A stretch of DNA of 64,000 nt from Eledone cirrhosa (lineage: Eukaryota): positions 350,734,001 through 350,798,000 of the forward strand of contig OZ024742.1 in NCBI GenBank assembly GCA_964016885.1, in the 5' to 3' direction. Both the position numbers and the translations under genes were made by a program. Positions 3,827-61,961 of this stretch are shown piece by piece. Under the pieces are notes generated by a model. It saw nothing but the letters and a program-made list of their open reading frames with translations. It was not told the origin of the DNA and made no database searches. Position 1 is the first letter of the stretch. Each line of letters starts with the position of its first letter.

Positions 3827-4497
3827 CTCGCACACACACACGCGCACACACACACACATATATATATGAGTGTGTGTGTTAATGATACCCCGATTCATTA
3901 GCTATCATGTCATCAACACGCAGTTTCATGAATGGAGAATTTACGGCAGACACGCAGATATAAACGATCCTTATTGATGTTTAATAATTTCGAATGTAGT
4001 GAGGTAAAAAGTTTGCAAAATTGTATCGAGGGATATTCGTTTAATGCATTTATTTAGTGAGAATGTAAGGTTCATCGATTATTTGGTAATCAATAAATCG
4101 ATGCTGTCTTCCTTATATTACCATGTGTAACCACGGGCCTACAAACAGTGCAATCCCGTTACACTCTCCTCATTCATCAAAACGTTCGTGGAACAAAATG
4201 CATCATTGACTTGCAAAACTTTAGAATATTATTGATACAGCGACTTCATATACTATAGGCTAAGCGCAGCATTGTCGAAAGATTAACTGGCTCGCTTCGC
4301 AATCATAAGGGCTAGAGCTCGATCCTATTGCATGGAGTCTTAGTTAAGTGTTTTGTATCTTCTCTCCGTGTCGATACTTGCCATGTAAGTGAAATTGGGT
4401 AGATGGAAACTGTTTGGAATCCCACTGTATAGGCTGTATCTACAATTCAGAGAGCCAGCCTTATTACAGATGCGCCAAGGTAAATCACTCTGATAAT

Positions 4498-15624: not shown

Positions 15625-17909
15625 TAGATGACGAGACAGAAGCACAGTTTACCATGGCTAGAAATAAGGTTAGACAAATAGTAGACCGGTATACTAAGAG
15701 ACAGATGCCCAACAACTTGGGAGGAAACCTGTAGAAGGCTTGGTTAGCCTCAAGCAGCGCACAAGGGATGGTGAGGTAGCATGTCTACCCACGGATAAGT
15801 CTGGTAGCATGCCAATAGATAGCATGCAGAACTACATCAAGGCTATGCAACCCCACATCACCAACACGAGCGAAATTGCACAACAAACACATGATGGGAG
15901 AGAGAAAATCCTCAACGCTCACATGATGATGTGGACTGACATCCTAAAGCCAAGCAGACGCACTGCCAACAACTTCCAGGCGTCTAACAATGGCATACCA
16001 CCCTTGTATGAGCTCCGCAAAGACCACAAGGCAGTCGACGACCCGACAACAAGACCACCAACAAGACCCGTATGCGGAGCTAATATAGCTAGCAACTACA
16101 GGATCTCCTACTTCCTCAATGGTTATACGCCCCATAATCAAGATGTCCCCAGATGTATGTGACAGTACAGAGGACCTCCTCAGCAGAATCAGTGAGTGCA
16201 ACAAAAGCAGGAACCTATCCAACTGTATAATAGGCTCATGGATGTGGTATCACTGTACCCATCCATTAACATTGATTTTGCTGTGGAAAAATGTGTGGAG
16301 ATGATCATTGAGAGTGAGGTGGAGTTCTGCGACGTCGACACAGACGAACTGGGCCTCCTACTTAGACTTACCTACGACACTGACTACCTCGACAGCCATG
16401 ACCTTAGACGTTTCTGCCCTAGTAGACCCATAAGGGGTAGACACCCCACCATAATCTCCATGGCAAAAAAGACTCCCATGGGAATGTGAATTGGGTGGAC
16501 CAAAGCTATACGGACCCCCCAAAACAAAGATCAGGTAAGAAAAATGGTCGCACATGCATTAGGGGCTAGTATCAAAACTACCCTAAAGGGCCACATATTC
16601 AAGTTCAAAGAGAAGATCTACACCCAAAATGAGGGAGCAGCCATTGGCGTCAGCATAGCTGGTGATGTTGCCAACCTTTTTATGGTATGGTGGGAAAGGA
16701 GACTTAAAGATCTCCTTAATGAGAGCTCCAAGGACCTCATCATGTACTCTCGTTACGTAGACGATATCAATATAGTTATAAGAACATCCCCTCTAGAGAG
16801 CACTAACAAGTTTGATTTAGAACGTAGCACAATGGAAAGCATCCAGCAGATAGCTAATTCCATACACCAGAGTATAACTGTAACTATCGACTACCCTTCC
16901 AAACACCCTAACAATAGACTACCTGTATTAGAAACGGAACTCTGGATTAACACTATAGACGAGAGAGCCCAAATTCTCCACTCACACTATGCTAAATCCA
17001 TGGCCTCCAAATACCTGACACTCAAAAACTCAGCAATGTCCAGTAGTGCTAATTTTAATAATCTGATCGCAGATTTAGAACGAGTGATGAAGAATGTGTC
17101 CCGCATGTGCGACCCAACAAAATGGAAAGACACATCTAACACTTCATCAACCGCATGCAGTTCTCTGGCTACAACCAAAGAGACAGAGTCAGAGTATACG
17201 AAGGAGCCATGGAGAAGTACAAGACGCTCATAGAACTGGACATGAAAGGAATTTACCCATTATACAGGAGCACATCCTGGAACAGCTTAGATAGGGCTAG
17301 ACATAAGATAGGGAAAGCCACCTCATGGTACGACAAAAAGAGATACCAGAGTGTCAGGTTTGTGGATGCAACCCCTGGAGGGAAATTAGCTAACTAGTGT
17401 AGAAAGGCCCTGATTTAGACCCACTTAAAGATTAAGGTGGTAGAAAAGACAGGAACCACCATAAAATCCCTGATCAGCAAAACCTACCCTTTTAAGAAAC
17501 CCACTGTACTAATAGGAAATGTATCATATGTAAGGTAAACCCCCGGATAAACTGTAAAACTAGAAACGTAGTCTATAGCATAAGATGTACAGAGGGTACT
17601 TGCAGAAACATGACAACAACATACATAGGTGAGACAGCTCGTAGCATAGGGGAAAGGATAGACCAGCACTGGGGGGAACTAAAAGGACGAAAAAACAGGT
17701 CAGTACTATACGAACATGCCAGACAACAACACGACGGTAACATAGACAACATAGAAATTAGAATAATATCTAATCATAGAAATGACCCAGCAGATAGGCA
17801 AATCAGAGAGGCCAGTGAAATAGAACTTAGAAGGCCAAGACTAAACAGAAAGAATGAATGGAATAACAACAACACCCAAACAAACAACACTGACCGAAGA
17901 GAAGTATAA
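15625..17909 (+). pseudogene. PLE reverse transcriptase-GIY-YIG pseudogene
   Basis: ORF pieces 15740-16162, 16196-16489, 16544-17233, 17155-17397 and 17610-17909, joined by frameshifts and stops. Confidence 0.85.
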
Positions 17910-23072: not shown

Positions 23073-24449
23073 TTATGTAATATTCGGCTTGTAGTGGGAA
23101 AAAAGGGTTTTAGTTCTGTGACGGCAGAATAATGTTCGTTCAATTCTGTTATTCAGCAGTTTCTTCTTGTGTGTGATTATGTAATAAATCTCAAGATTAC
23201 ACAATTTGCAGAAATTTTGGCTCCTGGAAAAGCTTTGGGTTTTAGCTAATTTTTCCCATTTTAGGGTAAACTTTTGATCGCTATCCCTGAGCGTCCAAGC
23301 TTTTTCTGCTAGAGTTGTTACATTTCTTTGGCTCTGGTGTTTTATTGAGTAAGAATGCCTATACAATCGAGATTTAAACGATGTTGCCGTTGATCCCACG
23401 TAATACCACTCGTTGCCTCCGGATTTAATGGTACACTTATAAATAATATTTTTTTCCAGGCAGTTATTGCCGAGGGGGCAGTTGTCAGGATAGGTGCAGT
23501 TACAGTTGTGTACGTTGGGTTTTCTCTGGAGTAGTATTGCGGACGAACTTAGGTGTGGTTTATTTATGTTCTGTAGTGTATTGTCTACTGTTTTTTTTGT
23601 GTTCTTTGTACTTAAGTTCTTAGTGTTTTCGTTTAACCTTCTAGTATTGATCTTTTTTATGTGTTGTTCAAGGTTTAACGCTGTAGAGTATGACAGTCTT
23701 ATAGTGGTAGGGTTTAGGATTTTGTGGTATTTGTGTGATGTGGGAAAATGTCTTTTAATTATTTTAAAGAAGAGTACTGGTAAATTTGTACTAATGGAGC
23801 TATTGTATTCGGGGTTATACCATAAGTACTCTTTGCATCGCTTTCTATTAGTTTTGTTTGTTGGTTTACTGGTGTGCATACTATGGTAGTAAGTGTGGTT
23901 TGGTGTTGTGTTATTATATCTACCTATGTGGGATTTATTTTGGGTGTTTTGATTGTTCCCATCTATGTACTCTATTTTGTTGAGGTAGCCTGCTTTACTA
24001 AGGGCGTTATCGTAGTACTCGGCGTGTTCCTTAAATACTTGTATGTTAGAAGATAGACCCGAGATTCTAAGGGAAATATTTTTAGGGATAGATTTAATTA
24101 TAGAGATGGGGTGGTTAGACCCAACATTTACGTATTTAAGATTTTCATTCAATTTATGAAACGGTTTAATCAAACCAGAGTTTAAATTGAGTGTGACATC
24201 CAGGAAGTTAACTACTTTAAGGTTGTATTCATATGTTATAGTTAGTCCTATTTCGAGTAGTAGTTTTCTTATATCTTTGCGTAGTTTTTCTAGTTTTTGG
24301 TTATTAAGGTTTTTAGCTAGGAGGAGAACATCGTCGCGGTATATTCCGCCGTGGAGATTGCTGAATTTTTCCTGGAGTCTAAAGGCGATAAATAACCCCA
24401 CAATATCAGTTATTTCCGCCGAATCGTTAGAGCCCATTGTTATGTCAAA
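23073..24449 (-). CDS. PLE RT (C-terminal half) plus Cys motif and GIY-YIG; uninterrupted but 5'-truncated
   Basis: FDITMGSNDSAEITDIVG, GIYRDD, CNCTYPDNCPLGNNC, NIIYKC...YVGST, CKLC. Confidence 0.85.
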   Translation of the reverse strand, partial: FDITMGSNDSAEITDIVGLFIAFRLQEKFSNLHGGIYRDDVLLLAKNLNNQKLEKLRKDIRKLLLEIGLTITYEYNLKVVNFLDVTLNLNSGLIKPFHKLNENLKYVNVGSNHPISIIKSIPKNISLRISGLSSNIQVFKEHAEYYDNALSKAGYLNKIEYIDGNNQNTQNKSHIGRYNNTTPNHTYYHSMHTSKPTNKTNRKRCKEYLWYNPEYNSSISTNLPVLFFKIIKRHFPTSHKYHKILNPTTIRLSYSTALNLEQHIKKINTRRLNENTKNLSTKNTKKTVDNTLQNINKPHLSSSAILLQRKPNVHNCNCTYPDNCPLGNNCLEKNIIYKCTIKSGGNEWYYVGSTATSFKSRLYRHSYSIKHQSQRNVTTLAEKAWTLRDSDQKFTLKWEKLAKTQSFSRSQNFCKLCNLEIYYIITHKKKLLNNRIERTLFCRHRTKTLFSHYKPNIT

Positions 24450-24981
24450 GAACACAAAAAAAACAGTAGACAATACACTACAGAACATAAATAAACCACA
24501 CCTAAGTTCGTCCGCAATACTACTCCAGAGAAAACCCAACGTACACAACTGTAACTGCACCTATCCTGACAACTGCCCCCTCGGCAATAACTGCCTGGAA
24601 AAAAATATTATTTATAAGTGTACCATTAAATCCGGAGGCAACGAGTGGTATTACGTGGGATCAACGGCAACATCGTTTAAATCTCGATTGTATAGGCATT
24701 CTTACTCAATAAAACACCAGAGCCAAAGAAATGTAACAACTCTAGCAGAAAAAGCTTGGACGCTCAGGGATAGCGATCAAAAGTTTACCCTAAAATGGGA
24801 AAAATTAGCTAAAACCCAAAGCTTTTCCAGGAGCCAAAATTTCTGCAAATTGTGTAATCTTGAGATTTATTACATAATCACACACAAGAAGAAACTGCTG
24901 AATAACAGAATTGAACGAACATTATTCTGCCGTCACAGAACTAAAACCCTTTTTTCCCACTACAAGCCGAATATTACATAA
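24442..24981 (+). CDS. Inverted copy of the Cys motif plus GIY-YIG domain with a junction-created ATG (179 aa)
   Basis: ATG TCA AAG AAC... is in frame with the duplicated endonuclease domain; expression is unknown. Confidence 0.4.
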   Translation: MSKNTKKTVDNTLQNINKPHLSSSAILLQRKPNVHNCNCTYPDNCPLGNNCLEKNIIYKCTIKSGGNEWYYVGSTATSFKSRLYRHSYSIKHQSQRNVTTLAEKAWTLRDSDQKFTLKWEKLAKTQSFSRSQNFCKLCNLEIYYIITHKKKLLNNRIERTLFCRHRTKTLFSHYKPNIT

Positions 24982-37665: not shown

Positions 37666-39198
37666 GTGTGTCCATGTGAGTGTGTGTGTGGCTCCGTGTG
37701 TATGTGTATATGCGTACGTGTGACTGTATGTATATGTGCATGCGTGTGTGTATGAGTGCCCTTGTGTGAGTGTGCGTGTTTACATGTGTACGTGTGTTTG
37801 TTTAATGAGACAGAGAAAAGTCTATAATAAAGAGCGGGCGTAGAATGAGACATAAATAAGCAGGCTAGCTGGACCTTGTTGATCAAAGCTAACTTATCAT
37901 TAACACATTACGTGCTAGCTCCAACTTTAACTAATATCATTTAACACTTCACTAGATTTCAATCTGGTCGGACAGGATATTATTTTTAAATTCGATAGCT
38001 ACTGAGAAGCATTTTCGAAAAATGTAAAGTTGCTGCTTGCACGGCGTTATTTTATCAATATTTGCCTGAAAACGATAGCTATTTCTGTCAAAGTGGGCAG
38101 TGATATATGAGCTGAACAGTGAAACGATTAAGGGAATATGAAGGAAAGTAGCAAATGAAGTGAAGAAAAGAGGAAGTAAGATCATAAGTATGGTATTTAC
38201 TACATCATTTCTTGATCATCGACATACAAATACAAAACTGCTGTTCAATATTTAAGATATATTACCCAATATGTACATATTTGTCGTTATTGATATTTCT
38301 AACAATATCTTCTGGGTTGATCGAGTGGTGTGTTTGGTAAAAGGAAAAAGAAAAAAGCAATATGGTTAAAGATATGTAGGAAAATGAATAGAACAGAAAA
38401 TATATTGGAAAAAAATTAATATTACGATGCTCGAGGCGTTAACCTTGGGTGGGATGGGGTCCACATACAATAATTGTATTGGTCATGTAAGAATGATGTA
38501 GATATAAATTTCGATCGTCAAACGCGTCGTAGAAACCATATGTACTGTAATAAACTTATGTTTTTTTTAAATATATATCGAAGACATTGGGCAATAAATG
38601 TCACCATTAAACACACTGAAAATAGCGATATAACAAGCTATGTAATGTATGAAATATTGATTATTTACTTATTTATAAATATATTGATGTATTTTCTGTA
38701 TATAATGAATATTAACAGCAGATATATGCTATCATGAATATGCGTCATATGGAACAAATACCAGCTACGTACCAGCGCCCGAATATAAGTGATATTAGGA
38801 GAACGATTGGGTTAGATAGGTAGATAGATAAATAGATAGCTCGATAGCTAGATATATATAGATATAGATAGGCAGATAGGTAGATGGATGGATAGATAGA
38901 TAAATATGTATATAAATAGATAGATAGATAGATATGTTTCTTTTATTTGCCACTAGGGCATCAAAAGTGGGACAAGTACAAAGGGGGGAGTTTACACAAA
39001 AAGGCGTCCTCAATAAGGAGGAGGCAATAACAAAATATAAAAATAAAATGAGATATAACAAAAAATAAAATTTTTAACAAAATCCTCAATAGAGAGGAGG
39101 CGCCTTGGGGGATCGCACACACCCCCGAAAAAAGTGTGCAACCCTTCTCCTCAGGAGCACAGAGAAGGGGTGCTCCCTTGGTCTTTCATCTTCCTCAC

Positions 39199-42100
39199 CT
39201 ATAGTCTGATGTAGAGTGAAGGCCCATTCACACGGGCCATTCTCGCCACTTTCACCCATCTTTCATAGAAACGGCTGGGGTGCAGCACCTCTCTCTCCAT
39301 CCTGATCCTTCTTCCGAAATGATATCGGAAGAAACGGACCAGTTGTTGGCCAGAGAGAAAGGTGCCCGACCTCAGTCCTATCAGACGCGTCCACCATACA
39401 ACCTCTTTCGCCATGGCTATTACGCACAGAAACACCGCCTCTGCTTCATCTTTGAAGGGGGGAGGCGGCTTGATCATTACAATAGACTCGGTGGTCAACC
39501 GGATCGGTTCCACCCTTGACAGCAGTTGTTCGACATAGCCCCACAGATCGGCTACGCCCGAGCAGTGTACCAATGCGTGTGCAACGGTTTCCTCGTCGCA
39601 CACGCATCTGGGACAGATCTTTTTGGCGGGGTCCCTACCCGGGCGCCCGTGTCTGTAGAGCCTTTCTCGAACGGGTAAAGCCCCTCGGTAGCACTGCCAG
39701 GCCAGGGACTTCTGGAAGTTGTCCATAGGTCCCGGGCTGAATGTCCTACCGAACAGGCTGGCCAGTTCGTCCTCCTCCATGTCTAGGGCTTCTCCAAGGG
39801 CGTCGTCGCACCTGCTGCGCACCAGCCCTCTATAGAATGTTGCGGTGGAGTCTCCACTGATAACCGGATCCGCCTGCCAGAGGGCGGTGAGCGCCTGGGC
39901 ACACTCAGTGTGCCAGGCGCCCAGTTTTCTCGGTCTTTGCTTGACCCAGGATTGCAGCTCGGTGAGTGAGACGAGTCTGGGAAAGGTTCGTCTCACAAAC
40001 GAGGCCCACACCGGTTGTCCGGTGAGGAATACGTAGAGGTGCCGTAGCCTTAATGCGTGTTTACGCATCATTAGCCACGGCATCCCCAGCCCTCCTTTCG
40101 AAGGGTGTTGACAGCAGATGGATCTCCTCACCATAGGAGCCCGCCTCTTCCAAAGGAATTGGAAGAGCGCGCGCTCCATCTTGGTGAGGGTTTCCCTTGG
40201 GCAGGGCACTACGGTCAGGCGGTAGTAGATGACGGACGCTATGTAGGTGTTCGCCACCTCCGCCCGACCTTTCAGGGATAGTTTGCAACTGGCCCACTTC
40301 TGGGTCAGTGCAAACACCCTGTTCGTAACCTCCGCCCAGTTTTTCTCCACCTGGAGGTCCGGTCCGAACCAGACCCCGAGCAACTTCACCGGGCCCTCCG
40401 TCCAGCGTCCGACGACGCTATCGGAGGGCATCGGTCTGCCCCTCCACGTGCCGAGTTGCAAACCGATCGACTTGTCCCGGTTCAGCTTAGCCCCTGTGAA
40501 CTTTTCGTACTCCTCCAGTAAGGTGCCAACCGCCTCGATTTCGGAGGCCGTCGACACCATTACTGTCACGTCATCGGCGTAGGCCGACACCGCTTTCCGC
40601 AATCCCGGTTCCATAGGGATGCCCTGCAACAACTCCAACTTCCGCAGTAGTGGCTCGAGAGTCAACACATACAGAAGGGAGGAGAGGGGGCACCCTTGTC
40701 GGATGGACCGCGCGATTTTGAACGGCTCCGAGAGGTAGCCGTTCACCTTGACCCTAGAGCAGATGCGGCTGCTGTGCATAGCAGTGATCCAGCCCCTGAA
40801 AACGGGTCCGAAGCCTGCCGCCGCTAGCACCGCATCCAGGTAACCATGGTCGACCCTATCGAACGCCTTAGATTGATCCAAGTTGATCAGAGCCCCACCA
40901 AAGCCGGGTTCGTTCCCAACCCTCTCTATGATGTATCGCATGAGGTGGAGGTTGTCATGGATGGACCTGGACGGGATAGCGCATGTCTGCGCATCTCCCA
41001 CCAGGTTGCCCACGACAAGCGCCAACCTCTTTGCTAGCACCTTGGCCAAAATCTGTAACTCTGTATTTAGCAGTGTTATGGGCCTGAAGTTACTTATTTC
41101 GTCCCCCTTGTTCTCGTCCTTCCTCACTAGCGTGACTACGCCCTTGGTCACAGTACAGGGAATTCTCCCGTTCTGTTGCCAGTTGCAGTAGACCGCCTCG
41201 AGGAGATCGGGGAACAAGTCCGGCATAGCTAGATATAATTCGTAAGGAAGACCATCGAGACCCGGGGATTTGCGTTTGCCGCATTGGCTCAGCACGTCCT
41301 CTATCTCAGCGGCCGAAATCGGCTCCTCGCAGGACTTCGCCTCCCTGTCTGAGAGGCGCGGCAGGCCGTCGAGGTATGGACCGAAGTCCACGTTCCCAAC
41401 CGGCTCCCCGCCCCTCCCGAACAGTCGGGCTAAGTGCCTTTGAAAGGCCTCACACATCTGCTTAGGCTCAAGAATCGCCCGTCCATCCAGGTCTCGCAAA
41501 GACCGGATGGTGGATTTAGTTCCACTGTTGGCCTCTGTCACGCGGGCCCAGCTAACAGCTTTGGTCCCCTCGTTCCCTAGAGCACGTATTTTACTTCGGA
41601 CAACGCAGCCTTCGTGCTTCGCGTCGAAAAACTGGCTCAAAGCCGTTCTCGACGCTAGCACTCTGGCCACGTCGCCGCTTCTAATTGCCTCTTCTACTCT
41701 ATCTATTAGCTCCCTTTCCTTCCTATTCCTATCCGCAGCTAGAACCTTACTAAATTCTATCGAGACTACTCTAATCTCTCTCTTTAGAGATACCCACCAC
41801 CTGCTGTTGACGATCGCTCCAGTCAACCGTTCCTTAACTAACGTACTAATCCGATTCCTGTAGGCTCTACTTGCCGGCAAGGACAAGTTGAGCTTCCAGT
41901 AACCGGGGCCCTGTCTATGAGTTCTGTCAAGGTTGACCATGCAGGTCACTAATTTGTGGTCTGAATAGCCAACAATGCGCATTTTTGGACAACTTAAAAA
42001 GTCCTTATCCTTAATTCTAACTAAGAACCTATCTAGGTACGACCTAGATGATCCGCTACGATTTGCCCAAGTCCAGGTTGGCGCAGTCGGAAAATCTAGT

Positions 42101-42636
42101 CGATATCTATCGGCCAGGTCAAATCGACCGATTATCCCTTTGAGGCTATTACACCCCTCTCTATCGGGGCAGGCCCCTACGTAGTCCCAGCGTGCATCTA
42201 GGATACCATTCCAGTCCCCCACCAATAGCAAGGAGCGGGACGTCCCTAGAAAAGTCTCCAGACGATGGAAGAAGTCCGGCCGCATTGACCCGAAAGGGCC
42301 GTAGGCGGCTACCAACCTAAACGCTCCGCCTTTACCACTGCCAAGGTCCAGAACCACTAGTCGACCCTCCGGGTCCAAATGTACCATCTGTGTTGCGAGA
42401 CCCAGATGTTTTTGCAGCAGAACGACAACTCCACCCCCACCTCCGGGCTGACAGAGAGATGCGTGCATCTCAAAGTCATCAAAGGTGGGGGCCAGCTGTC
42501 GCACGTTGCTGATCCGGGCCTCGCAAATAACCATCACATCTATACGTTGTGACCTGAGGTCATTTAGAAGCATTGCTTGCTTCCAAGTTGAGCCCAGGCC
42601 ACGCGCATTTAAACAGCCTACTCTTAGCATAGCCAT
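39199..42636 (-). CDS. ORF2: AP endonuclease, reverse transcriptase and C-terminal Cys-His motif
   Basis: LNARGL, VGDWN, SYLDR, SDH, PGYWKLN, KSPGLDGL, FRPITLLN, DQSKAFDRVDH, RQGCPLS, AYADD, CPRC..ETVAHALVHC. Confidence 0.95.
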   Translation of the reverse strand: MAMLRVGCLNARGLGSTWKQAMLLNDLRSQRIDVMVICEARISNVRQLAPTFDDFEMHASLCQPGGGGGVVVLLQKHLGLATQMVHLDPEGRLVVLDLGSGKGGAFRLVAAYGPFGSMRPDFFHRLETFLGTSRSLLLVGDWNGILDARWDYVGACPDREGCNSLKGIIGRFDLADRYRLDFPTAPTWTWANRSGSSRSYLDRFLVRIKDKDFLSCPKMRIVGYSDHKLVTCMVNLDRTHRQGPGYWKLNLSLPASRAYRNRISTLVKERLTGAIVNSRWWVSLKREIRVVSIEFSKVLAADRNRKERELIDRVEEAIRSGDVARVLASRTALSQFFDAKHEGCVVRSKIRALGNEGTKAVSWARVTEANSGTKSTIRSLRDLDGRAILEPKQMCEAFQRHLARLFGRGGEPVGNVDFGPYLDGLPRLSDREAKSCEEPISAAEIEDVLSQCGKRKSPGLDGLPYELYLAMPDLFPDLLEAVYCNWQQNGRIPCTVTKGVVTLVRKDENKGDEISNFRPITLLNTELQILAKVLAKRLALVVGNLVGDAQTCAIPSRSIHDNLHLMRYIIERVGNEPGFGGALINLDQSKAFDRVDHGYLDAVLAAAGFGPVFRGWITAMHSSRICSRVKVNGYLSEPFKIARSIRQGCPLSSLLYVLTLEPLLRKLELLQGIPMEPGLRKAVSAYADDVTVMVSTASEIEAVGTLLEEYEKFTGAKLNRDKSIGLQLGTWRGRPMPSDSVVGRWTEGPVKLLGVWFGPDLQVEKNWAEVTNRVFALTQKWASCKLSLKGRAEVANTYIASVIYYRLTVVPCPRETLTKMERALFQFLWKRRAPMVRRSICCQHPSKGGLGMPWLMMRKHALRLRHLYVFLTGQPVWASFVRRTFPRLVSLTELQSWVKQRPRKLGAWHTECAQALTALWQADPVISGDSTATFYRGLVRSRCDDALGEALDMEEDELASLFGRTFSPGPMDNFQKSLAWQCYRGALPVRERLYRHGRPGRDPAKKICPRCVCDEETVAHALVHCSGVADLWGYVEQLLSRVEPIRLTTESIVMIKPPPPFKDEAEAVFLCVIAMAKEVVWWTRLIGLRSGTFLSGQQLVRFFRYHFGRRIRMEREVLHPSRFYERWVKVARMARVNGPSLYIRL

Positions 42637-42660
42637 GTTGGTGGTGAAGAGAAAAGGCAC

Positions 42661-44448
42661 TTACCTCTCTGCGTCCCGGGTATCGGGCTGCACAATTTCC
42701 ATTAGGGTGGGGGATGGGTTGTTGGGTGGGGTGGTGGTTTGTGGAAGTGTGGGGGCATCAGTGTGTTGTGTGGTTGGGGAGCTTGGAGTTGTGAGGGTGT
42801 TTGGCGAGGGGGTGGGATAGTTTTTTAGGAGGACGCGGTTAATGGGCCCGACGCAGGGGGGACCCACGTCCTCTTTAAAATTGTTTTTTAAAGTTTTATA
42901 GGTGTCCTGTGGGGCCTTAATCATTTTGAGGTGGGGGAAATCCCCTGCCTGGGTGAAGTTAGGCCCTTGTGTTTTTATTAGATTGTTGTTGTACACAATG
43001 TTTAACAGTTTTTTGTTTCTTGTATTTATGTATGTGTATGCATGTTTTTGTTTTTGTGTGGTGTTTTTTGTTTGCTGTTGTGAGCTCTTTTGTGTTGGTG
43101 TCAGTGTTATGTTTTGGGGAGGGGTTTTTTTCATTTGTGTGTCTGAGGTGTGTTTTCTTTTTTTTCTTTTGATTGTGTGGAAGTGCTCCTCCTCGTCTGA
43201 CGACGAACTAGGGTCATCTTCCGCGTTGGAGGGGAGGGGTATATTTTCGGGTTGTGTTTGCGGTACGGGTGTTTTGGAAATTGTTTTTGTTTTTTGAGTG
43301 GAGGGGATGGGTTGGACATTGTTTTGTTTTGGTTTGAGCTGTGGTGGTTGTTTTTGTAGTGGTAGTTGTGGTGATTGTGTTGGTTGTGCAGTTGTTGGTG
43401 GTGTAGGCAGGATTGGGGTTTTCTTATTAAGTTGGGGACATACAGCCCTCAGGTGACCTCTGGTTCCGCAGAGGTAACACGAGGGCCGTCTACCCTCAAC
43501 GGTAATGTTGATGAAGGTTAGATCATCCAGTATGACGCGTTCAGGGATCTGGGCGATCCTTTCGGGCCTCATTTGAACTACAAGTTCGAGGCTCGTTCCA
43601 CTGAACGCGTCACCCGATGCCTTTCCCATGGACACCAGCATGTCATCCTCCAGGTCCAGAAAACCTGTCAAAACCCACCATATGTCCATAATCGGCAGGA
43701 TGGTGTGGATTTTTATTTTTTGTGTTCTTCTACCCATGTACGTAGGGTAGAAGGTGTATGCGGTGGATGTGATTGGTTTGATGGACAGTTTCACTGCTGT
43801 GTCCCTGTCCTTCATGAGAATGGATAGACTTCCGTAGAGTCTATCCTTCTGAATGAAGGTGATGTCCTTCATGACGTCTTTTAAAACCAGCTCTATCTCG
43901 CTCTGTGATGGTTGAGCTGGTTTTTTACTTTTGTTCGAGATTGTCCTAAACATGACCGTGTTTAGGAGTCTCTGGCTTTTTAGTTCCGGGGGGGAATGGA
44001 TTGTGAATGAACCATTTTCCCCGTACACTATATATTTTTTCGCATCCGCCAGTAGCTCCTTCGCTTTTGTTATATCTACTGGCAGATAGTCGAGGGTTTT
44101 CCTTGTCGTCTCGGCGAAGGAGAAATTTTGTTTGTTTGTGTTGTTGTTGTCGTTGGTGGTGTTGTTGTTATCATTGTTGTTGTTGTCACCGTTATTGGTC
44201 TTGTTGTTGTTATTGTTATTGTTATTGGTGTTGTTATCGTCCGTCGCATTGTTGTTGTTGTTGCTGTTGCTGCTGGTTCTTTGGGTTGTTGCCATGGCAA
44301 CGTCAAGTTGTCGGTTAACAGGTGGAGAGAATTCTTCCTCTGGCTGACCTATCTTCTTGACCTCTGCTACTGTGACAGTGGCAGGGGGAAGCTGTAAGTT
44401 CATCTTCCCCTTTCCTCCTTCGAATTTTGGTGAAGAAGCTTCAGCCAT
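42661..44448 (-). CDS. ORF1: nucleic-acid-binding protein with a CCHC zinc knuckle
   Basis: CYLCGTRGHLRAVC; Asn-rich N-terminus; lies directly upstream of ORF2. Confidence 0.9.
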   Translation of the reverse strand: MAEASSPKFEGGKGKMNLQLPPATVTVAEVKKIGQPEEEFSPPVNRQLDVAMATTQRTSSNSNNNNNATDDNNTNNNNNNNNKTNNGDNNNNDNNNTTNDNNNTNKQNFSFAETTRKTLDYLPVDITKAKELLADAKKYIVYGENGSFTIHSPPELKSQRLLNTVMFRTISNKSKKPAQPSQSEIELVLKDVMKDITFIQKDRLYGSLSILMKDRDTAVKLSIKPITSTAYTFYPTYMGRRTQKIKIHTILPIMDIWWVLTGFLDLEDDMLVSMGKASGDAFSGTSLELVVQMRPERIAQIPERVILDDLTFINITVEGRRPSCYLCGTRGHLRAVCPQLNKKTPILPTPPTTAQPTQSPQLPLQKQPPQLKPKQNNVQPIPSTQKTKTISKTPVPQTQPENIPLPSNAEDDPSSSSDEEEHFHTIKRKKRKHTSDTQMKKTPPQNITLTPTQKSSQQQTKNTTQKQKHAYTYINTRNKKLLNIVYNNNLIKTQGPNFTQAGDFPHLKMIKAPQDTYKTLKNNFKEDVGPPCVGPINRVLLKNYPTPSPNTLTTPSSPTTQHTDAPTLPQTTTPPNNPSPTLMEIVQPDTRDAER

Positions 44449-49978: not shown

Positions 49979-52529
49979 TTGATTGGCTGCATGCTAACTA
50001 AAGACTACCTACCTATATCACTCAAGAACATCCCAACCCCATCCAGGACTACTTACGAGAAATTACTGATAGCTAGTGTCAACTCCTTCGTTAAGCGTAT
50101 TAGATGGCGCACTTTCCACTTCGATAAGAGAAATAAGAAAACAACTACGGTGTCCTCCAATAACAAATTCGGTTTTAAAACCTATAGGAGCCCGCCCCAT
50201 AACTCCATGCTAGATGGATTTGAGAATGACCTCCTATCACTAGTAAGGAATATTAAGTTTAAAAACCCCCATGGGAATAGCAACAAATTCCGAATGAAAC
50301 TGGAAACCTTAGTTAAGGACTTTAACGATAAAAGAGATATCCTGGTCACCTCGGATAAAACCAGAAATATTTATAGCTTAAATTATGATACGTATCGTAG
50401 GTTTATATACAATGAATTAAATAGAAACTATAAAAAGACAACAAGCGCAAACTTAGATGAAATTAATAAGGAAGCATGCGCCATAGTGGATAAACTAGGT
50501 CTGGAAAAGTATACCCAACCATATACCCCTAAGCAACCCAGGTTCACCCTTAAAGACCATAAGGCTGACTTCATTAGTAAACCCTCTGTTAGATTAATTA
50601 GCCCATCGAAGTCAGATATAGGTATTATCAGCAAGAACATTTTAGACGGCGTTATACCCACCATCACGAGGAATATATATCTAGAGCTATGGGAGAATAC
50701 GGAAGAGGTTTTGAAATGGTTTTCAAGCCTTAGAAACCATAAATCCCTTAAATTTATACAATTCGACATCGATGCGTACAACACCTCAATCTCCCCCATA
50801 CTCCTTAATAAGGCCCTAATCATGGCCATGCATAAAAGTCACCTCACTAGGTCTCAAATTGATGTCATTCTTGCGGCCCGGAAAACGATAATCACATTTG
50901 AGGATGAATTGTGGACCCGCAAGAATACGCCCAATAACTTCGACATCACAATGGGATCTAGTGACTCTGCACAAGTAACGGACCTGGTAGGATTGTACCT
51001 CTTAAAGGAGTTACATGAGACATTACCGCACTTGAAGGGCGGCTTATACCGTGATGACGCCCTCCTCACTCTCGAGTATAAAAAGTGCAATATAGAAAGA
51101 ACTAGGAAACAGTTACGTAGGTTCTTTAAAAACTTTAATCTAAGTATTACCATAGATGCAAATGATAAAACAGTAAACTTCCTAGACGCCACCCTTGACC
51201 TAGAAAGTAAAACATTTGCACCCTACCATAAACCTAACGATAGACTAACATATGTAAACTCCAGATCTAACAACCCCAAATCAGTCCTAAATGCTATTCC
51301 CAAGGGGGTCTCTAATAGAATTAGCAGACTGTCCTGTAATGAGAGTATCTTCAACTCCAATGCAGAATATTATGACAAGGCCCTAGCAGAATCTGGTTAC
51401 GGGAGTAGATTATCATATATACATAAGGACTCCCAATCCATGAGTGTGAAACCTACCAACATAATCACACATAGTATGGCCACAAAGCCTAACCAACTTA
51501 GAGGCAAGAATAATAGTAAGAACCCTATTGGTGGTAACCCAGCTAAATGTAAACCACGTAAAGACAATACTAGAGTCCCTCACCACAACTCTAAAACAGT
51601 AAATGATCACGCCATGAATATAAACCATCCGGGCTTAAGCAAAACAGACAACGCCACTAACGTTAATAACGGAACCCTACAAAATAGTACGCACAGTAGC
51701 GAGACTCACCCCACAGATAAGAAAAATAGAAGAAAGAAAAGCATGTATTTAAACCCACTATTTAATTCTCAGGTCCTCACTAACCTCCCCAGAGTATTCT
51801 TCTCATTATTGGAATAAAACTTCCCACCAGGCAATAGATATCGCAACATAATTAACAAAAACGTAATTAAATTATCCTATTCGACCACACCTAACCTCGC
51901 ATCACACCTAGCACGCAGGAACATTAAGAAAACTAGAGAAGGTTTCGAAGCAATTAAAATGGCAGTTAACCACCAGCAACCGACTACACTTGAAAATGGG
52001 CAACATAATAGCATCAATGAGCCATCTAATGATATAGAGGCACCTAGTGATAATGCTAGTAACCAAACTTCGGGAGGTACGCTAACTAATCGAACCCGCA
52101 GTTGCAATTGTAGGCGGAGTAGTAATTGTCCCCTAAGGGGGGATTGCCTCATCAAAAACATCGTATATGCATGTGACGTAACCACACACAACTCTATCAA
52201 AACATATATAGGAGCAACGTCCAATACATTTAAAACTAGATTTAACGCGCATATGTACACGATAGACACGATAGACATAAGAATGCCACCTCACTGGCGG
52301 TATACATCTCCTTCTTAAAAAATAATAGTACCCCATAAAACTTTTTTGGAGGAAGTTTACTAGATCCACGCCATACCGACCGCAGAGCGGAAGTTGTGAC
52401 CTGTGTTTACTGGAATGCCATGCCATAATACACTCTAAACTGAACCTGCTTAACAGGAAATCGGAAATTTTCTGCTCATGCCAACACAAAATCCTGAGTT
52501 CCTTCTTCTATTTTAAACCTAGCACATAG
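49979..52529 (+). pseudogene. PLE RT-GIY-YIG ORF (stop at 51815, frameshift near 52260)
   Basis: SDKT, TLKDHK, QFDIDAY, FDITMGS, GLYRDD, CNCRRSSNCPLRGDC, NIVY...YIGAT, CDLC. Confidence 0.9.
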
Positions 52530-56325: not shown

Positions 56326-58370
56326 ATGGATAACACAAAAAAGAGAGAGAGAGCGCTGTCAGACAACACAGAGAGAGGGAGACTTTTTCAGCATGTCAAC
56401 AAGACAGCGTTCCAGCGGAGGTAAATATAAATGAAAATATTACAAAGGAAAAAAAGATTGTTACAGATTTAAAATTACCAAATATTTCTAACACAAACAA
56501 CACCACCAACAACACCAACAACATCGCCAACAACAACAATAACAGCGGTAAAGTCGAGAACGACAATAACAAAAATAACAGCGGTAAGGTCGAGAACGAC
56601 AATAACAAAAATAACAGCGGTAAGGTCGAGAACGACAATAACAGTGACAATAACAACAGCCACAACAACAATAATAGTAGGATCAGTATCAACAAAAACA
56701 ACAATAATAACAACAGCCACAATAACAGTAACAGCAGCAACAGTATCAACGAAAACAACACCAACAACTGTACCAGCGAAAAGAACAACAATGACACCGT
56801 AACCTGTAATAGCGACCTCAGCACCACTAGTAAGACCAGTAGCGCCAGCAATAGTGGTGCTGCTGAAAAAGGTACCACTTCTTTTGCATGTGTCGCCCGA
56901 AATATCGAGACAGTGTTAGTCACAGAGGAGGAGATGGCAGTCGCAAGGGCCATGGTGACAAGAAGCGCAAATAGAGTTCCCCTGAAACCTCCACCCGATT
57001 TTTTCAAGGACCAGCAGCTACGAACGGTGATTTACCGCACCGTAAGCAAAATCTCACACCGAGTGGAGAGAGCCACGGAGGCTCAAATCCAAAAGGCCTT
57101 GGTGTGCGTCTGGGCACGCAAAACCCACATCACCCGAGGCAGAAAATACGCCACAGTAGACGTATTTTTCGCCACCCCCCAGGAAGCAAAGTCTCACTCT
57201 TTGGAAACCCTAAAGAGTGAGGAATTAGTCTTGGTGCCCTCCTACTTCGGGCAGACAATTGTGAGGGTCAAAGTGACCCAGGTCCAACCCGACGTGCCCA
57301 TACCTTGGCTGGCCGTGTCTGTCCTTGCTGGAATTGAGAACAAGGCGACCATGCTGCAAGTAGAAAAAATAGGGAAAGAGAACTGGTCAGGTATAGGCAT
57401 GCAAATGCTTATACAAACTGACCAGGAATGTATCGAGGCTATCCCCGATATCATAGACTTTGAGGAAGGACTCCAACTCCCTATAAATGTAGAAGGAAGA
57501 CGGCCAAAATGTTATCTCTGTGGGTCGAAAGGTCACCTCAGGGCCTTTTGCCCGCAGAAGACACCGAAGAGGGCCCCTCACCTTCCAATACCTGGTCCGC
57601 TGCTACCAAGAGCAGGACAGGCAACAAACGAAGAAGCCCCTTCGACGGTGAGTAGGAGGGCAACGTCCGTAGCACCCGTACCAAGGCCACGGATAACTAA
57701 AGCAGCATCATCAGTAGCGGCAACACCGATAGCTACATTTGAAATAGCTACACCAGCAACAACATTGCCGAAGAGGGCTCCACTACCACCACCAACAGCC
57801 GTGGAGCACATACCCCTCCCAGACGCCACTGAATCCGACATGCAGTTTGAGGCGGGAGTGACATGGCAAACAGTCTGCCACAAAAAAACAAAAACAAAAA
57901 AAACAACCTTAGATTCACCCTCCAAAAGCGAAGGCATACGAAGAGGGGTAAAGGCAGCAAGGAAACTTGCAGCAACACCACCACAAACACCAACAACGCA
58001 AACACAACAAGACACACACACCAAACAGCAACAAGAAGAAAACGGCAACAAAATCACCCCTCCCCCCAAAAAGTACACAGCCATAAACATAGCAAAAAAA
58101 GAACTTATAAAATATATAAAGTAGCACACAGACATCACGGAAACAAACTACTACACCCCACCAACACCAAGAACTCTCCCGACAAACATAAGCATCATCG
58201 AAATCTCAATAGAACAATAGAAACCTTTAAAACAAAAATTCCCCAACGCAGTTGAAGACTTCAGAGGGACGGTTACCAAGAGGATATACACTGACATCCT
58301 CTTGGAAACACCCATGACCAGCGAAAGGGACGGTTCTACTGTCCCTTCACCACACGAACGAGGTAAGTGA
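56326..58370 (+). pseudogene. ORF1 of family B (zinc knuckle, Asn-rich repeats)
   Basis: Frameshift near the start and two premature TAGs (58122 and about 58218); natural end ...ERGK* at 58368-58370. Confidence 0.8.
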
Positions 58371-58402
58371 CCCTTTCTCATTTGCCCCATTTCTCATCCA
58401 AC

Positions 58403-61400
58403 ATGGCTGTACTCAGAATAGGCAGTATAAATGTACGTGGCCTGGGGTCATCTTGGAAGCAGGGTCACCTGCTCAATGACCTCAGGTCACTAAACATAGA
58501 TGTGGTGGCCATCAGTGAAACCAGAATCTCCGAGGCACGGGCCTTCACACCGATCTTCGGCGGCTACGATGTATACGCATCTGCCAGCCGTCCAGGATCG
58601 GGGGGAGGGGTTGCCGTCCTTTTTCGGAGAGGCTTGGATCTCGCGATACGGGCCATCTTCCTGGATCCAGAAGGTAAGTCGGTGGTGCTGGACGTGACCG
58701 GCAGCGAAGGCAATGCTTTCAGGCTAGTAGCCGTCTACGCCCCAGCAGGGGCTGGACGGCCAGATTTCTTCAGACGTCTAGAGACCTTTCTTGGAACGTC
58801 CCGCTCTTTAGTGTTAGTGGGCGGCTGGAACGGTATCTTGGATGCACGCTGGGATCGTGTGGGGCTAGTGGATAGGGGAGGAGGGTGCAAGAGCCTCACC
58901 AACCTGCTCAGACGGTTTGAACTGTCTGACAGGTATCGACTGGATCACCTGAATGTGCCAATGTGGACATGGACAAACCGCATCGGGTCACGCAGGGAAC
59001 TAGATAAGGCTAGTATAAATTGTACACAATTTAAAATAGTCGACTACACAGACCACAAATTTGTGATCTGTGAGATCGACATAGATAGACTTCATAGACA
59101 AGGGCCTGGTTACTGGAAGCTGAACGTCTTTCCCGGCGCGCAAGGCCTACAGAGACCGGATTAGCGTATTAGTTAAGCGGGCGTTGACGGGAGCGGTCGT
59201 CAGCAACAGTCGATTAGGTTTAGCAAAGGAGTAATGATAGAGGAAAATAGAGTAGATGGAGCTCTAGTCAGAAAGCTAGAAGAGGCGTTTAGGACAGGCA
59301 TCGCAAACGACGTGCTTGCGGCGAGATTGGCACTCGACCAATTCTTCAACGCAAAACACGAAGGCTGCGTTGTCAGAGCTAGAGCGCGTGCTTTGAAACA
59401 CGAGGGGACAAAAGCCGTCCAATGGGCCCCGGTGGCAGAGGCGCGCTGTGGCAATAAAGCCACAATTCAGTCTTTGTCTGACCAAAACGGGTGCGTGATG
59501 CTCGAACCCGAGCGGATGTGTGAAGCTTTTCAGCAGCAATTTGCTGAACAGTTCGCGTGCGGCGGCGGCCCGGATCGGGGCATGGACTTCAGTGCATACC
59601 TCGACGGACTCCCTCGGCTCTCGACGACCGCAGCACAGTGTTGCGAAAAGCCAATAACAGCCGGTAAAATACGGGAAGCGATAAATCGCCAGGTTTAGAT
59701 GGTCTGCCCTACGAGCTTTATGCATTTATGCCAGACTTGTTCGGTGACCTCTTGGCAGACTTCTACTCCAACTGGCAGCAGAACGGGAGCATTCCCAGTT
59801 TTGTGAGCCGGGGAGCAGTGGCGCTGCTGAGAAAAGACCCGAACAAGGGCGATGTTATTGATAATAACGCAGAGTTCAAGATTTTGGCCAAGGTGTTAGC
59901 AACGAGGTTGGCGCTTGTCGTCAAGGGTCTGGTGGGAGAGGCGCAGACACGCGCCATCCCGGACAGATCCATACACGACAACCTCCACCTCATGCGATAC
60001 ATCATAGAGAATGTGGTTAAGGAACCTGACAAGGGTGGGGCCCTGATCAACTTGGATCAATCCAAAGTATTCGATAGGGTCGACCATCGGTACCAGGCGG
60101 CGGTCCTCGAGGCAGCCGGTTTCGGGCCCGTTTTCAGGCGTTGGATCGCAGCAATGTACAGCGACATCTGCTCAGTTGTGAGGGTGAACGGTCACCTGTC
60201 GCAGCCGTTCAGTATCATGCGCTCAGTGCGCCAGGGTTGTCCCCTCTCGTCCCTCTTGTACGTAGTCCCACGCGAACTAGGATGCGGGAAATCCGAGTCG
60301 GCTTACGCTGACGACGTCACCGTGGTGGTGTCGAGCACCAGACACGTCCAGATGCTCGGCACCGCTCTCAAGGAATACGAAACGGTGATCGGAGCAAATA
60401 TAAACCAGGAAAAGTCGGTGGGCTTGCAGCTAGGCACCTGGAGAAGCAAGTCCATGCCGTCCGACAGCGTCGTGGGGCGTTGGACGGACGGACCGGTTAA
60501 ATTGCTCGGGGTCTGGTTCGGACCGGACCTCCAGATGGAGAAAAACTGGAACGAGGTGACGAGCAGGGTGGCCTCCCTCACCCAGAAATGGGCTGAGAGG
60601 AAGCTATCCCTGAAAGGCCGGGCGGAAGTGGCGAATGCGTACATCGCATCCGTCATCTGCTACCGCCTCACCGTCGTCCCTTGCTCCAGCCCAACTCTCA
60701 CCAAAATGGAGCGCCTCCTCTTCCGCTTTTTGTGGAAGGGACGCGCTCCCATGGTCAGACGATCCATCTGCTGTCAACACCCGTTGCGTGGAGGACTGGG
60801 CATGCCATGGCTGATGATGCGCAAACATGCGCTGAGGCTGCGACATCTCTGGTGCTTCCTTGATGGTGAACGGGTGTGGTGGCCGTTCGCCAGGCATATT
60901 TTCCCACAGCTCGTCTCCTTGACGGAGCTGCAGTACTGGGTCAGAAAAAGACCGAGGGATAACGCTTGGAAACTGGAATGTTTCCAGGCGCTCACTGCCC
61001 TCTCCCAGTTGGGCACCAGTATCGGTGGAACATCCACCTCGGCGTTCTATAGAGGACTAGTGGAGGGGAAGAGCGACGACGTTCTCGGAGAGATCCTGGG
61101 CGTCGAAGAAGATCAGCTGCTTGCTCTCTTCCGGAGAACTTTCAGCTCGGGGCCTATGGATAACTTCCAAAAATCCCTGGCCTGGCAGTGCTACCGGAGA
61201 GCGCTGCCGTTTCGAGATAATCTCTACAGGCACGGAAGTGCCGTCAGCCGAGCCTGTCCGAGATGCGCGCAGAGCGACGAAACCGTTGTGCACGCACTCG
61301 TTCAGTTCCCGAGCATTGCTGACTTGTGGAGCTATGTCAAACAGTTGCTGTCACGTGTGGGACTGATCCGGTTGTCGACTGAATCTATTGTGCAGATGGT

Positions 61401-61671
61401 CTCGCCGTCTTCCTTTGAGGAGGAAGGGCAGGCGGTTTTCATCTGCCTGGTGGCCATGGCGAAAGAGATTGTGTGGTGGACAATGTTAAAAGGATTAAAG
61501 ACAAACACTTTCCTCTTCGGCGAATCCCTGATTAACTTTTTCAAGTTTCACTTGAAGAGGAAAATCAGGGTGGAGAGGCAAGTGCTGCTTTCTAGCAAGT
61601 TTGTTGAAAGGTGGGTGAATGTAGCGAGAATGGTCCGAGTGAACGGGACCACTCTGAATATACGTCTGTAG
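58403..61671 (+). pseudogene. ORF2 of family B (APE-RT), frameshifted
   Basis: ORF pieces 58367-59164, 59234-59698 and 59728-61671; RQGCPLS, AYADD, CPRC. Confidence 0.9.
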
Positions 61672-61961
61672 TTTGAGAGATGGAAACATTGAGAGAGGGC
61701 GCTTGCTCTGGTAGTCAGGGTGGCCGTGGTCTTTTGTGTGGTTTTCGCCACGAGTAACCCTCGGAGGTTTCCCCCCTATTGGGGAATTTTTCATTGTTTC
61801 AATTTTCATTTTATTATTTATATATATATATATGTATTATGTCTTTTTTCTTTTCTCATATAAATAATAAAAAATATTTACACGCACAAAACCCACATCG
61901 TACCGTCCTGTTCCGTCTGTGATTTTTTTCTTGATGTCAGCCCTTGTGGCCAATAAAGAAA

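Follow-up and report, generated by a model that had tools for sequence, protein, structure and literature searches.

The window analysed here is a 64,000-nucleotide (nt) stretch of the Eledone cirrhosa contig OZ024742.1, and all coordinates below are positions within it. Its minus strand carries an intact long interspersed nuclear element (LINE) with two open reading frames (ORFs), a copy of the subfamily that we call A1. ORF1 (44448-42661, minus strand) encodes 595 amino acids (aa), contains a putative CCHC knuckle (CYLCGTRGHLRAVC) and ends in AGG TAA. ORF2 (42636-39199, minus) encodes 1145 aa with apurinic/apyrimidinic (AP) endonuclease, reverse transcriptase (RT) and zf-RVT domains. The pyrimidine-rich spacer between them (42658-42637, minus) has CCAAC just before the ORF2 ATG and forms the inner strand of a predicted RNA helix. 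The 3' untranslated region (3'UTR; 39198-38935, minus) contains AATAAA (38947-38942), closely preceded by a TAG with a pyrimidine tract (38953), and is followed by a (TATC)n tail. A 5' splice donor, GAG/GTAAGT (42667-42659, minus), overlaps the ORF1 stop. The first-pass annotation had proposed that the sequence from this donor to the end of ORF2 (42664-39199, minus; 3466 nt) is a precise, optionally retained intron. The donor half of this proposal held, through both the conservation and the apparent use of the site, but a role of the ORF2 stop as the normal acceptor was not supported.

We analyzed the conservation of the donor across genome copies, which were sorted by spacer sequence into lineages A-F. 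The comparison relied on 13 representatives of five lineages, whose ORF2 presents 69-97% nt identity to A1. ORF1 of the window copy ends GAG AG/GTAAGTG, as had been claimed, with the GT at 42664-42663. GGTAAGT was invariant in all 13 representatives, with positions -1 to +6 fixed and +7 free, and the maintenance of GTAAGT at the ORF1 end across related families, one of the checks set out at the start, was confirmed. All seven donor bases were invariant. By comparison, invariance was seen in 3 of 59 columns upstream, in 2 of 17 columns of the spacer and at 19% of the 262 four-fold degenerate sites. The donor followed by spacer and ORF2 start matched the genome 7645 times, versus 291 times for a reversed control. 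When elements were picked by protein similarity, blind to the motif, 27 of 30 carried the strict donor and the remaining three were single-change variants. The natural variants GTGAGT and GTAGGT agree with the 5' splice-site consensus. The codon phase of the donor differs between lineages: it is phase 2 (R-TAA) in A, C, E and F and phase 1 (GK-stop) in B and D. On this comparative evidence, the donor is selected as a nucleotide sequence, independently of codon phase.

The motif was also found outside these lineages. In a relative with 40% aa identity, recovered as probable host DNA from a metagenome-assembled genome, a donor follows the ORF1 stop at a distance of 1 nt in 73 of 74 occurrences, and of 2 nt in the remaining one (these occurrences come from overlapping loci), again with +7 free. 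A second family found alongside this relative (L218) presented neither the donor nor the TAG. Metagenome relatives at 21-30% aa identity presented no strong donor at the ORF1 stop; one of them (L156) has GTGAGT there, which is about chance level. The bacterial metagenome-assembled genome contigs in this material (L218-L256, L259 and L261) are tandem arrays of a eukaryotic LINE with a period of 6.4 kb and therefore probably represent co-binned host DNA.

We searched for chimeric elements by taking each family's exon side followed by any base except the native one, at the donor position plus one control position. Most of the matches returned were point mutants, but three independent long-range joins were found at the donor (J1, J2 and J5). 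In J1, an F-type ORF1 runs up to its donor and continues in A1 sequence directly after TTGTGCAG (GTGCAG). This putative cryptic acceptor (42707-42688, minus) has its CAG at 42690-42688, below the A1-specific, branch-like CCCTAAT at 42707-42701, and the acceptor point (window 42688) lies 23 nt upstream of the A1 donor. J1 was present at at least 15 loci among the 100 of 117 match lines listed and was confirmed in 11 of the 11 fetched. Comparison of seven J1 loci revealed that the downstream DNA is 92-93% identical to A1 and that the upstream DNA is nearer to F2. In J2, a J1-type element has a further F-type donor joined to it, directly after the CCGCCAG found 76 nt upstream. Two copies carry this join exactly (L290 and L298) and another carries it with a 1-nt indel (L291); the ORF1 frame was not restored in the two copies translated. 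Finally, J5 joins a B-type exon end to C sequence directly after AAGCAG, and this join defines a subfamily, C2, in which it was present in 10 of 10 records (seven distinct loci). The ORF1 side of C2 is 68% identical to B over 1.45 kb without any long match to C, and its ORF2 is 96% identical to C. An extra G brings the frame back to the stop of C, and C2 is a multi-copy subfamily with long open ORF2s.

These chimeric elements are joined exactly at the donor; therefore, GGTAAGT at the end of ORF1 is very likely a working spliceosomal donor. It is likely that this donor swaps ORF1 modules between LINE families. Splicing could have generated the chimeras either from tandem copies, within a read-through transcript, or in trans. 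A family B and a family C copy do sit in tandem in the window: the B copy (58360-61680, plus) has its donor GT at 58363 in phase 1 (GGT AAG TGA) and an ORF2 at 58403-61671 (plus) that ends TAG/TT TGA, and the C copy follows from about 62000. Separately, subfamily A3 (L066-L070) combines an ORF2 90% identical to that of A1 with a 5'UTR that differs and with an ORF1 whose identity to that of A2 is only ~65%. This represents another ORF1 swap, in which no splice-type scar was noticed.

At one further candidate locus (L270, G000:C5:21847250-21952400), a fragment of an E-like ORF1 has inserted in (TCT)50. The fragment stops at the donor, where a 21-nt satellite takes over in TAG register and extends as an array of ~104 kb; neither tail nor target duplication was found at the far end of the array. 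Three B-like matches on C28 proved to be a 59-bp satellite, of which L215 and L216 (G000:C28) are long arrays. Two candidates (L203 and L204) were rejected as junctions and represent short local micro-inversions around the donor region of family C. Also rejected was L208, which is similar to a host helicase exon; L205-L207 are not LINE junctions and L302 is not a LINE.

We further examined the proposed acceptor at the ORF2 stop (TAG/G TGA; 39220-39195, minus). ORF2 does end in CTA TAG (39201-39199) followed by G TGA, and cutting out the 3466 nt would leave the ORF1 product, ...DAER-stop, unchanged. The branch-like TTCAC (39220-39216) and the nearer CAG (39208-39206) are also located as claimed, but the site is weakly conserved. 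The acceptor had been said to be preserved in the second family A copy, a 5'-truncated element directly upstream (46574-44667, minus) that is tandemly inserted into a TATC tail. TAG/GTGA is indeed kept there (TAG at 44959-44957), but the branch-like TTCAC has been removed by a deletion of ~85 nt. More broadly, the ORF2 stop is TAG in A, B, D, E and F. The check on acceptor conservation gave a mixed picture, with TAA in C (and in C2) and loss of TTCAC in sister subfamilies, and no conserved branch point or pyrimidine tract was found. In the 40%-aa relative, ORF2 again ends TAG/G, at a non-homologous position, and the ORF1 stop precedes the donor. Joining donor to TAG would bring a stop within three codons in 8 of 13 TAG-bearing representatives (A1, F, B, B2, B3, D1, D2 and D3), although only A1 and F would keep the ORF1 end unchanged. 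Families A and B have a terminal acceptor before AATAAA, which C, D and E lack. On sequence grounds, the acceptor is the weak link of the interpretation of ORF2 as an intron.

The two ends of ORF2 are predicted to be held together by a covarying long-range RNA helix. Its 5' arm (42700-42616, minus) covers the end of ORF1, the donor, the spacer and the AUG, and its 3' arm (39223-39127, minus) covers the last ORF2 codons, the TAG and the first ~72 nt of the 3'UTR. In A1, the predicted structure contains 69 inter-arm pairs. The 3' arm was the best partner window within the element in six of six representatives and in three of three F copies. When arms were exchanged between lineages, the own-lineage assignment ranked 1 of 120 (lineage means of -66 to -79 kcal/mol), and ten control windows ranked 17-120. 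Two-sided changes were observed within lineage groups at 6/54, 5/34 and 6/28 inter-arm pairs. In the 40%-aa relative, a homologous helix was best or near-best in four of five variants, and none was found in 22 distant elements (21-30% aa identity). The UAA of the ORF1 stop is unpaired in A and D1. In A1 and A2, ORF1 and ORF2 share a frame across this UAA, unpaired in the predicted helix, which makes editing or readthrough conceivable; A3, B, C, D and E do not maintain such a common frame.

Given the conserved donor, the chimeric junctions and two arms that are complementary and covary, we infer the following steps. During transcription of the 3.5 kb of ORF2, U1 would bind the donor. Once made, the start of the 3'UTR would pair with the arm formed by the ORF1 end, the donor and the AUG, masking both the donor and the surroundings of the ORF2 stop, and this would keep most of the RNA unspliced for retrotransposition. 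Transcripts committed before the closure of this clamp would be spliced to a YAG near the ORF2 end; in the A1 copy the likeliest acceptor would be the stop TAG, giving ...DAER-stop. The removal of ORF2 would raise the level of ORF1 protein (ORF1p) over that of ORF2 protein (ORF2p), as in copia/EVD. In tandem read-through RNA, or in trans, the donor may sometimes join a cryptic CAG located 23-76 nt upstream of another element's donor. The resulting chimeric RNAs, which would still contain an ORF2, would be retrotransposed in cis and give rise to new families in which the 5'UTR and ORF1 have been exchanged. We assign a probability of about 0.5 to the reading that this donor, through helix-gated use, causes some transcripts to lose ORF2 and yields an ORF1-only mRNA. 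The wider proposal, that ORF2 is a structure-gated retained intron and that the same donor exchanges promoter-plus-ORF1 modules and creates new active families, is held slightly more tentatively.

Several observations weigh against ORF2 splicing. Lineage C is abundant although its ORF2 ends in TAA. Among 49 two-fold A/G sites, G was kept in at least four of five lineages at 37%, indicating that the retention of TAG is not beyond neutral. Moreover, the G of TAG pairs with a spacer C in the predicted helix, so that pairing alone can explain its retention. The stop TAG ranked only 8th of 87 conserved AGs by pyrimidine content (mean pyrimidine fraction 0.63), and TTCAC is specific to A1, being TTCTC in A2 and A3. 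Joining donor to TAG would add 70-78 codons in A2 and A3 and 27 in E (27-78 across A2, A3, E and E2), as well as more than 40 in F2. As for the helix, the signal is weaker when the short spacer is considered alone, with A spacers pairing better with foreign UTRs, and the addition of the 3' arm lowers predicted donor accessibility only modestly in A and D1. Finally, the acceptors at the chimeric junctions are all cryptic and never the stop TAG, and every chimeric junction shares a 2-nt AG microhomology.

Processed copies of the spliced product were also sought in the genome. The exact donor-acceptor junction yielded no genome match, versus 1522 exact, unspliced matches to the A-family donor and 2747 to the A1 acceptor. 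HAL1 (half-L1) elements carry ORF1 only, and HAL1-like copies had been predicted by the first-pass annotation, but none was found in any family searched. The wider searches recovered no ORF2-less copy in family A (8 and 13 variant loci), family B (14 and 9 loci), family C (34 loci; 95 lines), family D (6 loci; 36 lines) or families E and F (12 loci in one search), and the deletions that they did return were each different. Exact patterns of this kind miss diverged copies, a fixed trailing W loses some sites and one of the family A searches ran without a positive control. An ORF2-less RNA would need to be mobilised in trans, and the missing copies therefore limit the idea of HAL1-like elements more than that of an ORF1-only mRNA. 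Logan contigs (from runs of unrecorded kind) presented no 39198-42665 joint among the joints listed (15 of 136), and none in X5 or X6 either, although such contigs drop rare forms.

The main alternative, which we consider less likely than ORF2 splicing, is that the donor acts as a landing pad for the U1 small nuclear ribonucleoprotein (snRNP), which would block premature polyadenylation, aid transcription or make an intronless RNA resemble a pre-mRNA. The helix would then mask the donor once the RNA is complete, splicing would be accidental and TAG would simply be a stop held by pairing. The lack of an acceptor common to all lineages and the use of cryptic sites at the observed junctions are both consistent with this possibility, and U1 plays a splicing-independent role in EVD (PMC5580714). 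Donor-like motifs elsewhere in these elements point in the same direction. In A1, a second GTAAGT opens an intron-like segment of 67 nt (44628-44562, minus) about 30 nt from the 5' end of the element, with a U-rich tract and TTTTGTAG. A donor-like GTRAG with a U-rich tract is found ~30 nt in from the 5' end in A1, C, C2, D and E and about 50-60 nt in from it in A3, but not in B, and a similar motif is found in the 40%-aa relative, at position 1780 of L223. No spliced copy was found for this site in A1, C or E, which also counts against the splicing of ORF2 because such an RNA would retrotranspose in cis.

Both distant families also present donor-like motifs past the ORF2 stop, in intron-like 3'UTR segments (L223 7486-7735 and L218 about 3891-4045). 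These donors lie 14 or 38 nt past the stop, with a long pyrimidine tract and TAG downstream, and were unspliced in 46 of 46 occurrences (overlapping loci). The 0-6 AATAAA found in ORF1 are compatible with a landing pad. In contrast, AATAAA/ATTAAA is absent from ORF2 in A1, C, C2 and E and occurs 1-3 times in A3, B, D1 and D3. ORF2 thus has hardly any canonical poly(A) signals to suppress, and the cryptic signal expected inside the proposed intron under EVD-type anti-termination by U1 was not found. A mere pad would not need to lie a few bases from the ORF1 stop in three registers, and the occurrence of a stop within three codons of the join in eight representatives also argues against it.

A more doubtful alternative is that the role of the helix is mainly translational, with GGTAAGT as part of the structure. 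Placing the AUG opposite the ORF2 stop might couple termination to reinitiation or contribute to cis-preference. The AUG region does pair with the last ORF2 codons in predicted folds, and the donor is wholly paired with a CACUUGC-like 3'UTR stretch in B, C and E. However, A and D, in which the UAA is unpaired, present a donor that is no less invariant; in B, a U is maintained opposite G although C would pair better; conservation ends at +6; and the chimeras join exactly at GT. A translational role of the helix can in fact coexist with either ORF2 splicing or a landing pad.

It is also conceivable, but very improbable, that the motif was inherited without any splicing role and that the chimeras resulted from RT template switching or from DNA repair at the 2-nt AG microhomology. 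AG is indeed common to both sides of each junction, and the searches, limited to the donor and one control position, yielded three independent events only. Nevertheless, a switch driven by homology should preserve the register. None of the three joins does so, and they duplicate 23-76 nt of homologous sequence. All three joins follow CAG, when YAG and AG occupy only 1.5% and 4.2% of positions in the corresponding part of A1. At the control position (an AG/G preceding the F donor by 11 nt), none of 17 loci presented a long-range join. Internal ORF2 deletions in 23 aligned loci presented no GT-AG ends, and the invariance of the motif reaches as far as 40% aa identity. Splicing is, on these sequences, the simpler reading of the joins than template switching at a common AG. 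The least credible alternative is that a short intron, extending from the donor as far as an AG close to the start of ORF2, fuses ORF1 to ORF2. This could be suggested by a conserved YAG/G at about +111 in ORF2 (12 of 13), a YAG before ATG in some spacers (D2, D3 and F) and one E copy (L301) joined 1 nt past the conserved ORF2 YAG/G, and hence 1 nt off a precise splice. However, the phase fits phase-2 lineages only, and the first ~28 endonuclease codons would presumably be lost. In addition, the searches recovered no exact copy of such an RNA, although it would retrotranspose in cis.

The ORF2 of the element presents the domain order endonuclease-RT-zinc finger of L1-group, Tx1-like LINEs, and human L1 ORF2p is its closest solved relative. 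The element targets (TATC)n/(TGTC)n or (ATT)n microsatellites, ends in a repeat tail instead of poly(A) and forms tandem arrays. Domain order, microsatellite insertion and tandem arrays are all shared with L1-group, Tx1-like LINEs, and membership in Tx1 is likely from the domains and the targeting. We take such microsatellite-targeting LINEs to be those that go by Kibi/Koshi-type names. A Pfam scan of A1 ORF1 returned no match, although the CCHC motif is visible; zf-CCHC was returned for the family B ORF1 alone, with an E-value of 0.004, below the cut-off. The search for ORF1 homologues found none, the search of viral contigs found no relatives and Rfam gave no match in the three loci checked. 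Elsewhere in the window, ORFs resembling Penelope-type RT/GIY-YIG were recognized by eye at 16544-17233, 23073-24981 and 49991-51817.

The closest parallels to the proposed mechanism are the subgenomic gag RNAs of Ty1/copia elements, namely EVD of Arabidopsis and copia of Drosophila. In EVD, U1 both splices and blocks early termination, protecting the unspliced RNA; the EVD intron is short and coupled to early termination, and the intron of Drosophila copia is about 3 kb (PMC5580714). In EVD and copia, as in the present element, a U1-type donor is conserved close to where the structural-protein ORF ends, and pol serves as an optionally retained intron, as is proposed here for ORF2. They differ in that they are long terminal repeat (LTR) elements, in which gag and pol share a single frame and the RNAs have been demonstrated, whereas ours is a bicistronic LINE. 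In addition, a long-range helix is predicted here to span both ends of ORF2, and the main text of PMC5580714 never mentions secondary structure.

Among LINEs, spliced integrated retrotransposed elements (SpIREs) are deletions within the 5'UTR or the 5'UTR/ORF1 of a single element, represent about 2% of full-length human L1s and are mostly dead ends (PMC5860796). As in SpIREs, genomic copies with exact donor/acceptor joins, here J1, J2 and C2, very likely betray the splicing of LINE RNA. Unlike SpIREs, these joins are between elements, the donor lies at the ORF1 stop and the products are not dead ends, since J1 and C2 have amplified. In mRNA/LINE-1 chimeras, a host exon donor is joined, through cis- or trans-splicing, to a LINE acceptor and retrotransposed, and promoter renewal has been proposed (bioRxiv 10.1101/2025.02.02.635956). 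These chimeras are similar in that their 5' segments end exactly at splice donors, but here the donor is the LINE's own and conserved, and a whole 5'UTR and ORF1 are exchanged between families. L1-Tx1 families have been tabulated for Octopus vulgaris, in a study whose main text mentions neither splicing nor ORF1 (PMC13282606). An ORF2-less spliced RNA of the element would have the structure of HAL1, although no such copy was found here.

Our literature search, which left most subscription journals and supplements outside, returned no account of such a LINE donor, helix or joins, and the chimeric joins at a LINE's own donor represent a new observation. The donor, the candidate acceptors and the arms of the helix are mapped to the single base. 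Two open questions are touched by these results: how ORF1p comes to greatly exceed ORF2p when both are made from one RNA, and how the 5'UTR and ORF1 are replaced while ORF2 is kept. The usual answers are reinitiation for the excess of ORF1p and template switching for the replacement of 5'UTR and ORF1. A single donor encoded by the element bears on both questions: through it, a non-LTR element may produce ORF1p from a spliced RNA in the manner of copia, and at least two hybrid lineages that have amplified are joined precisely at this site.

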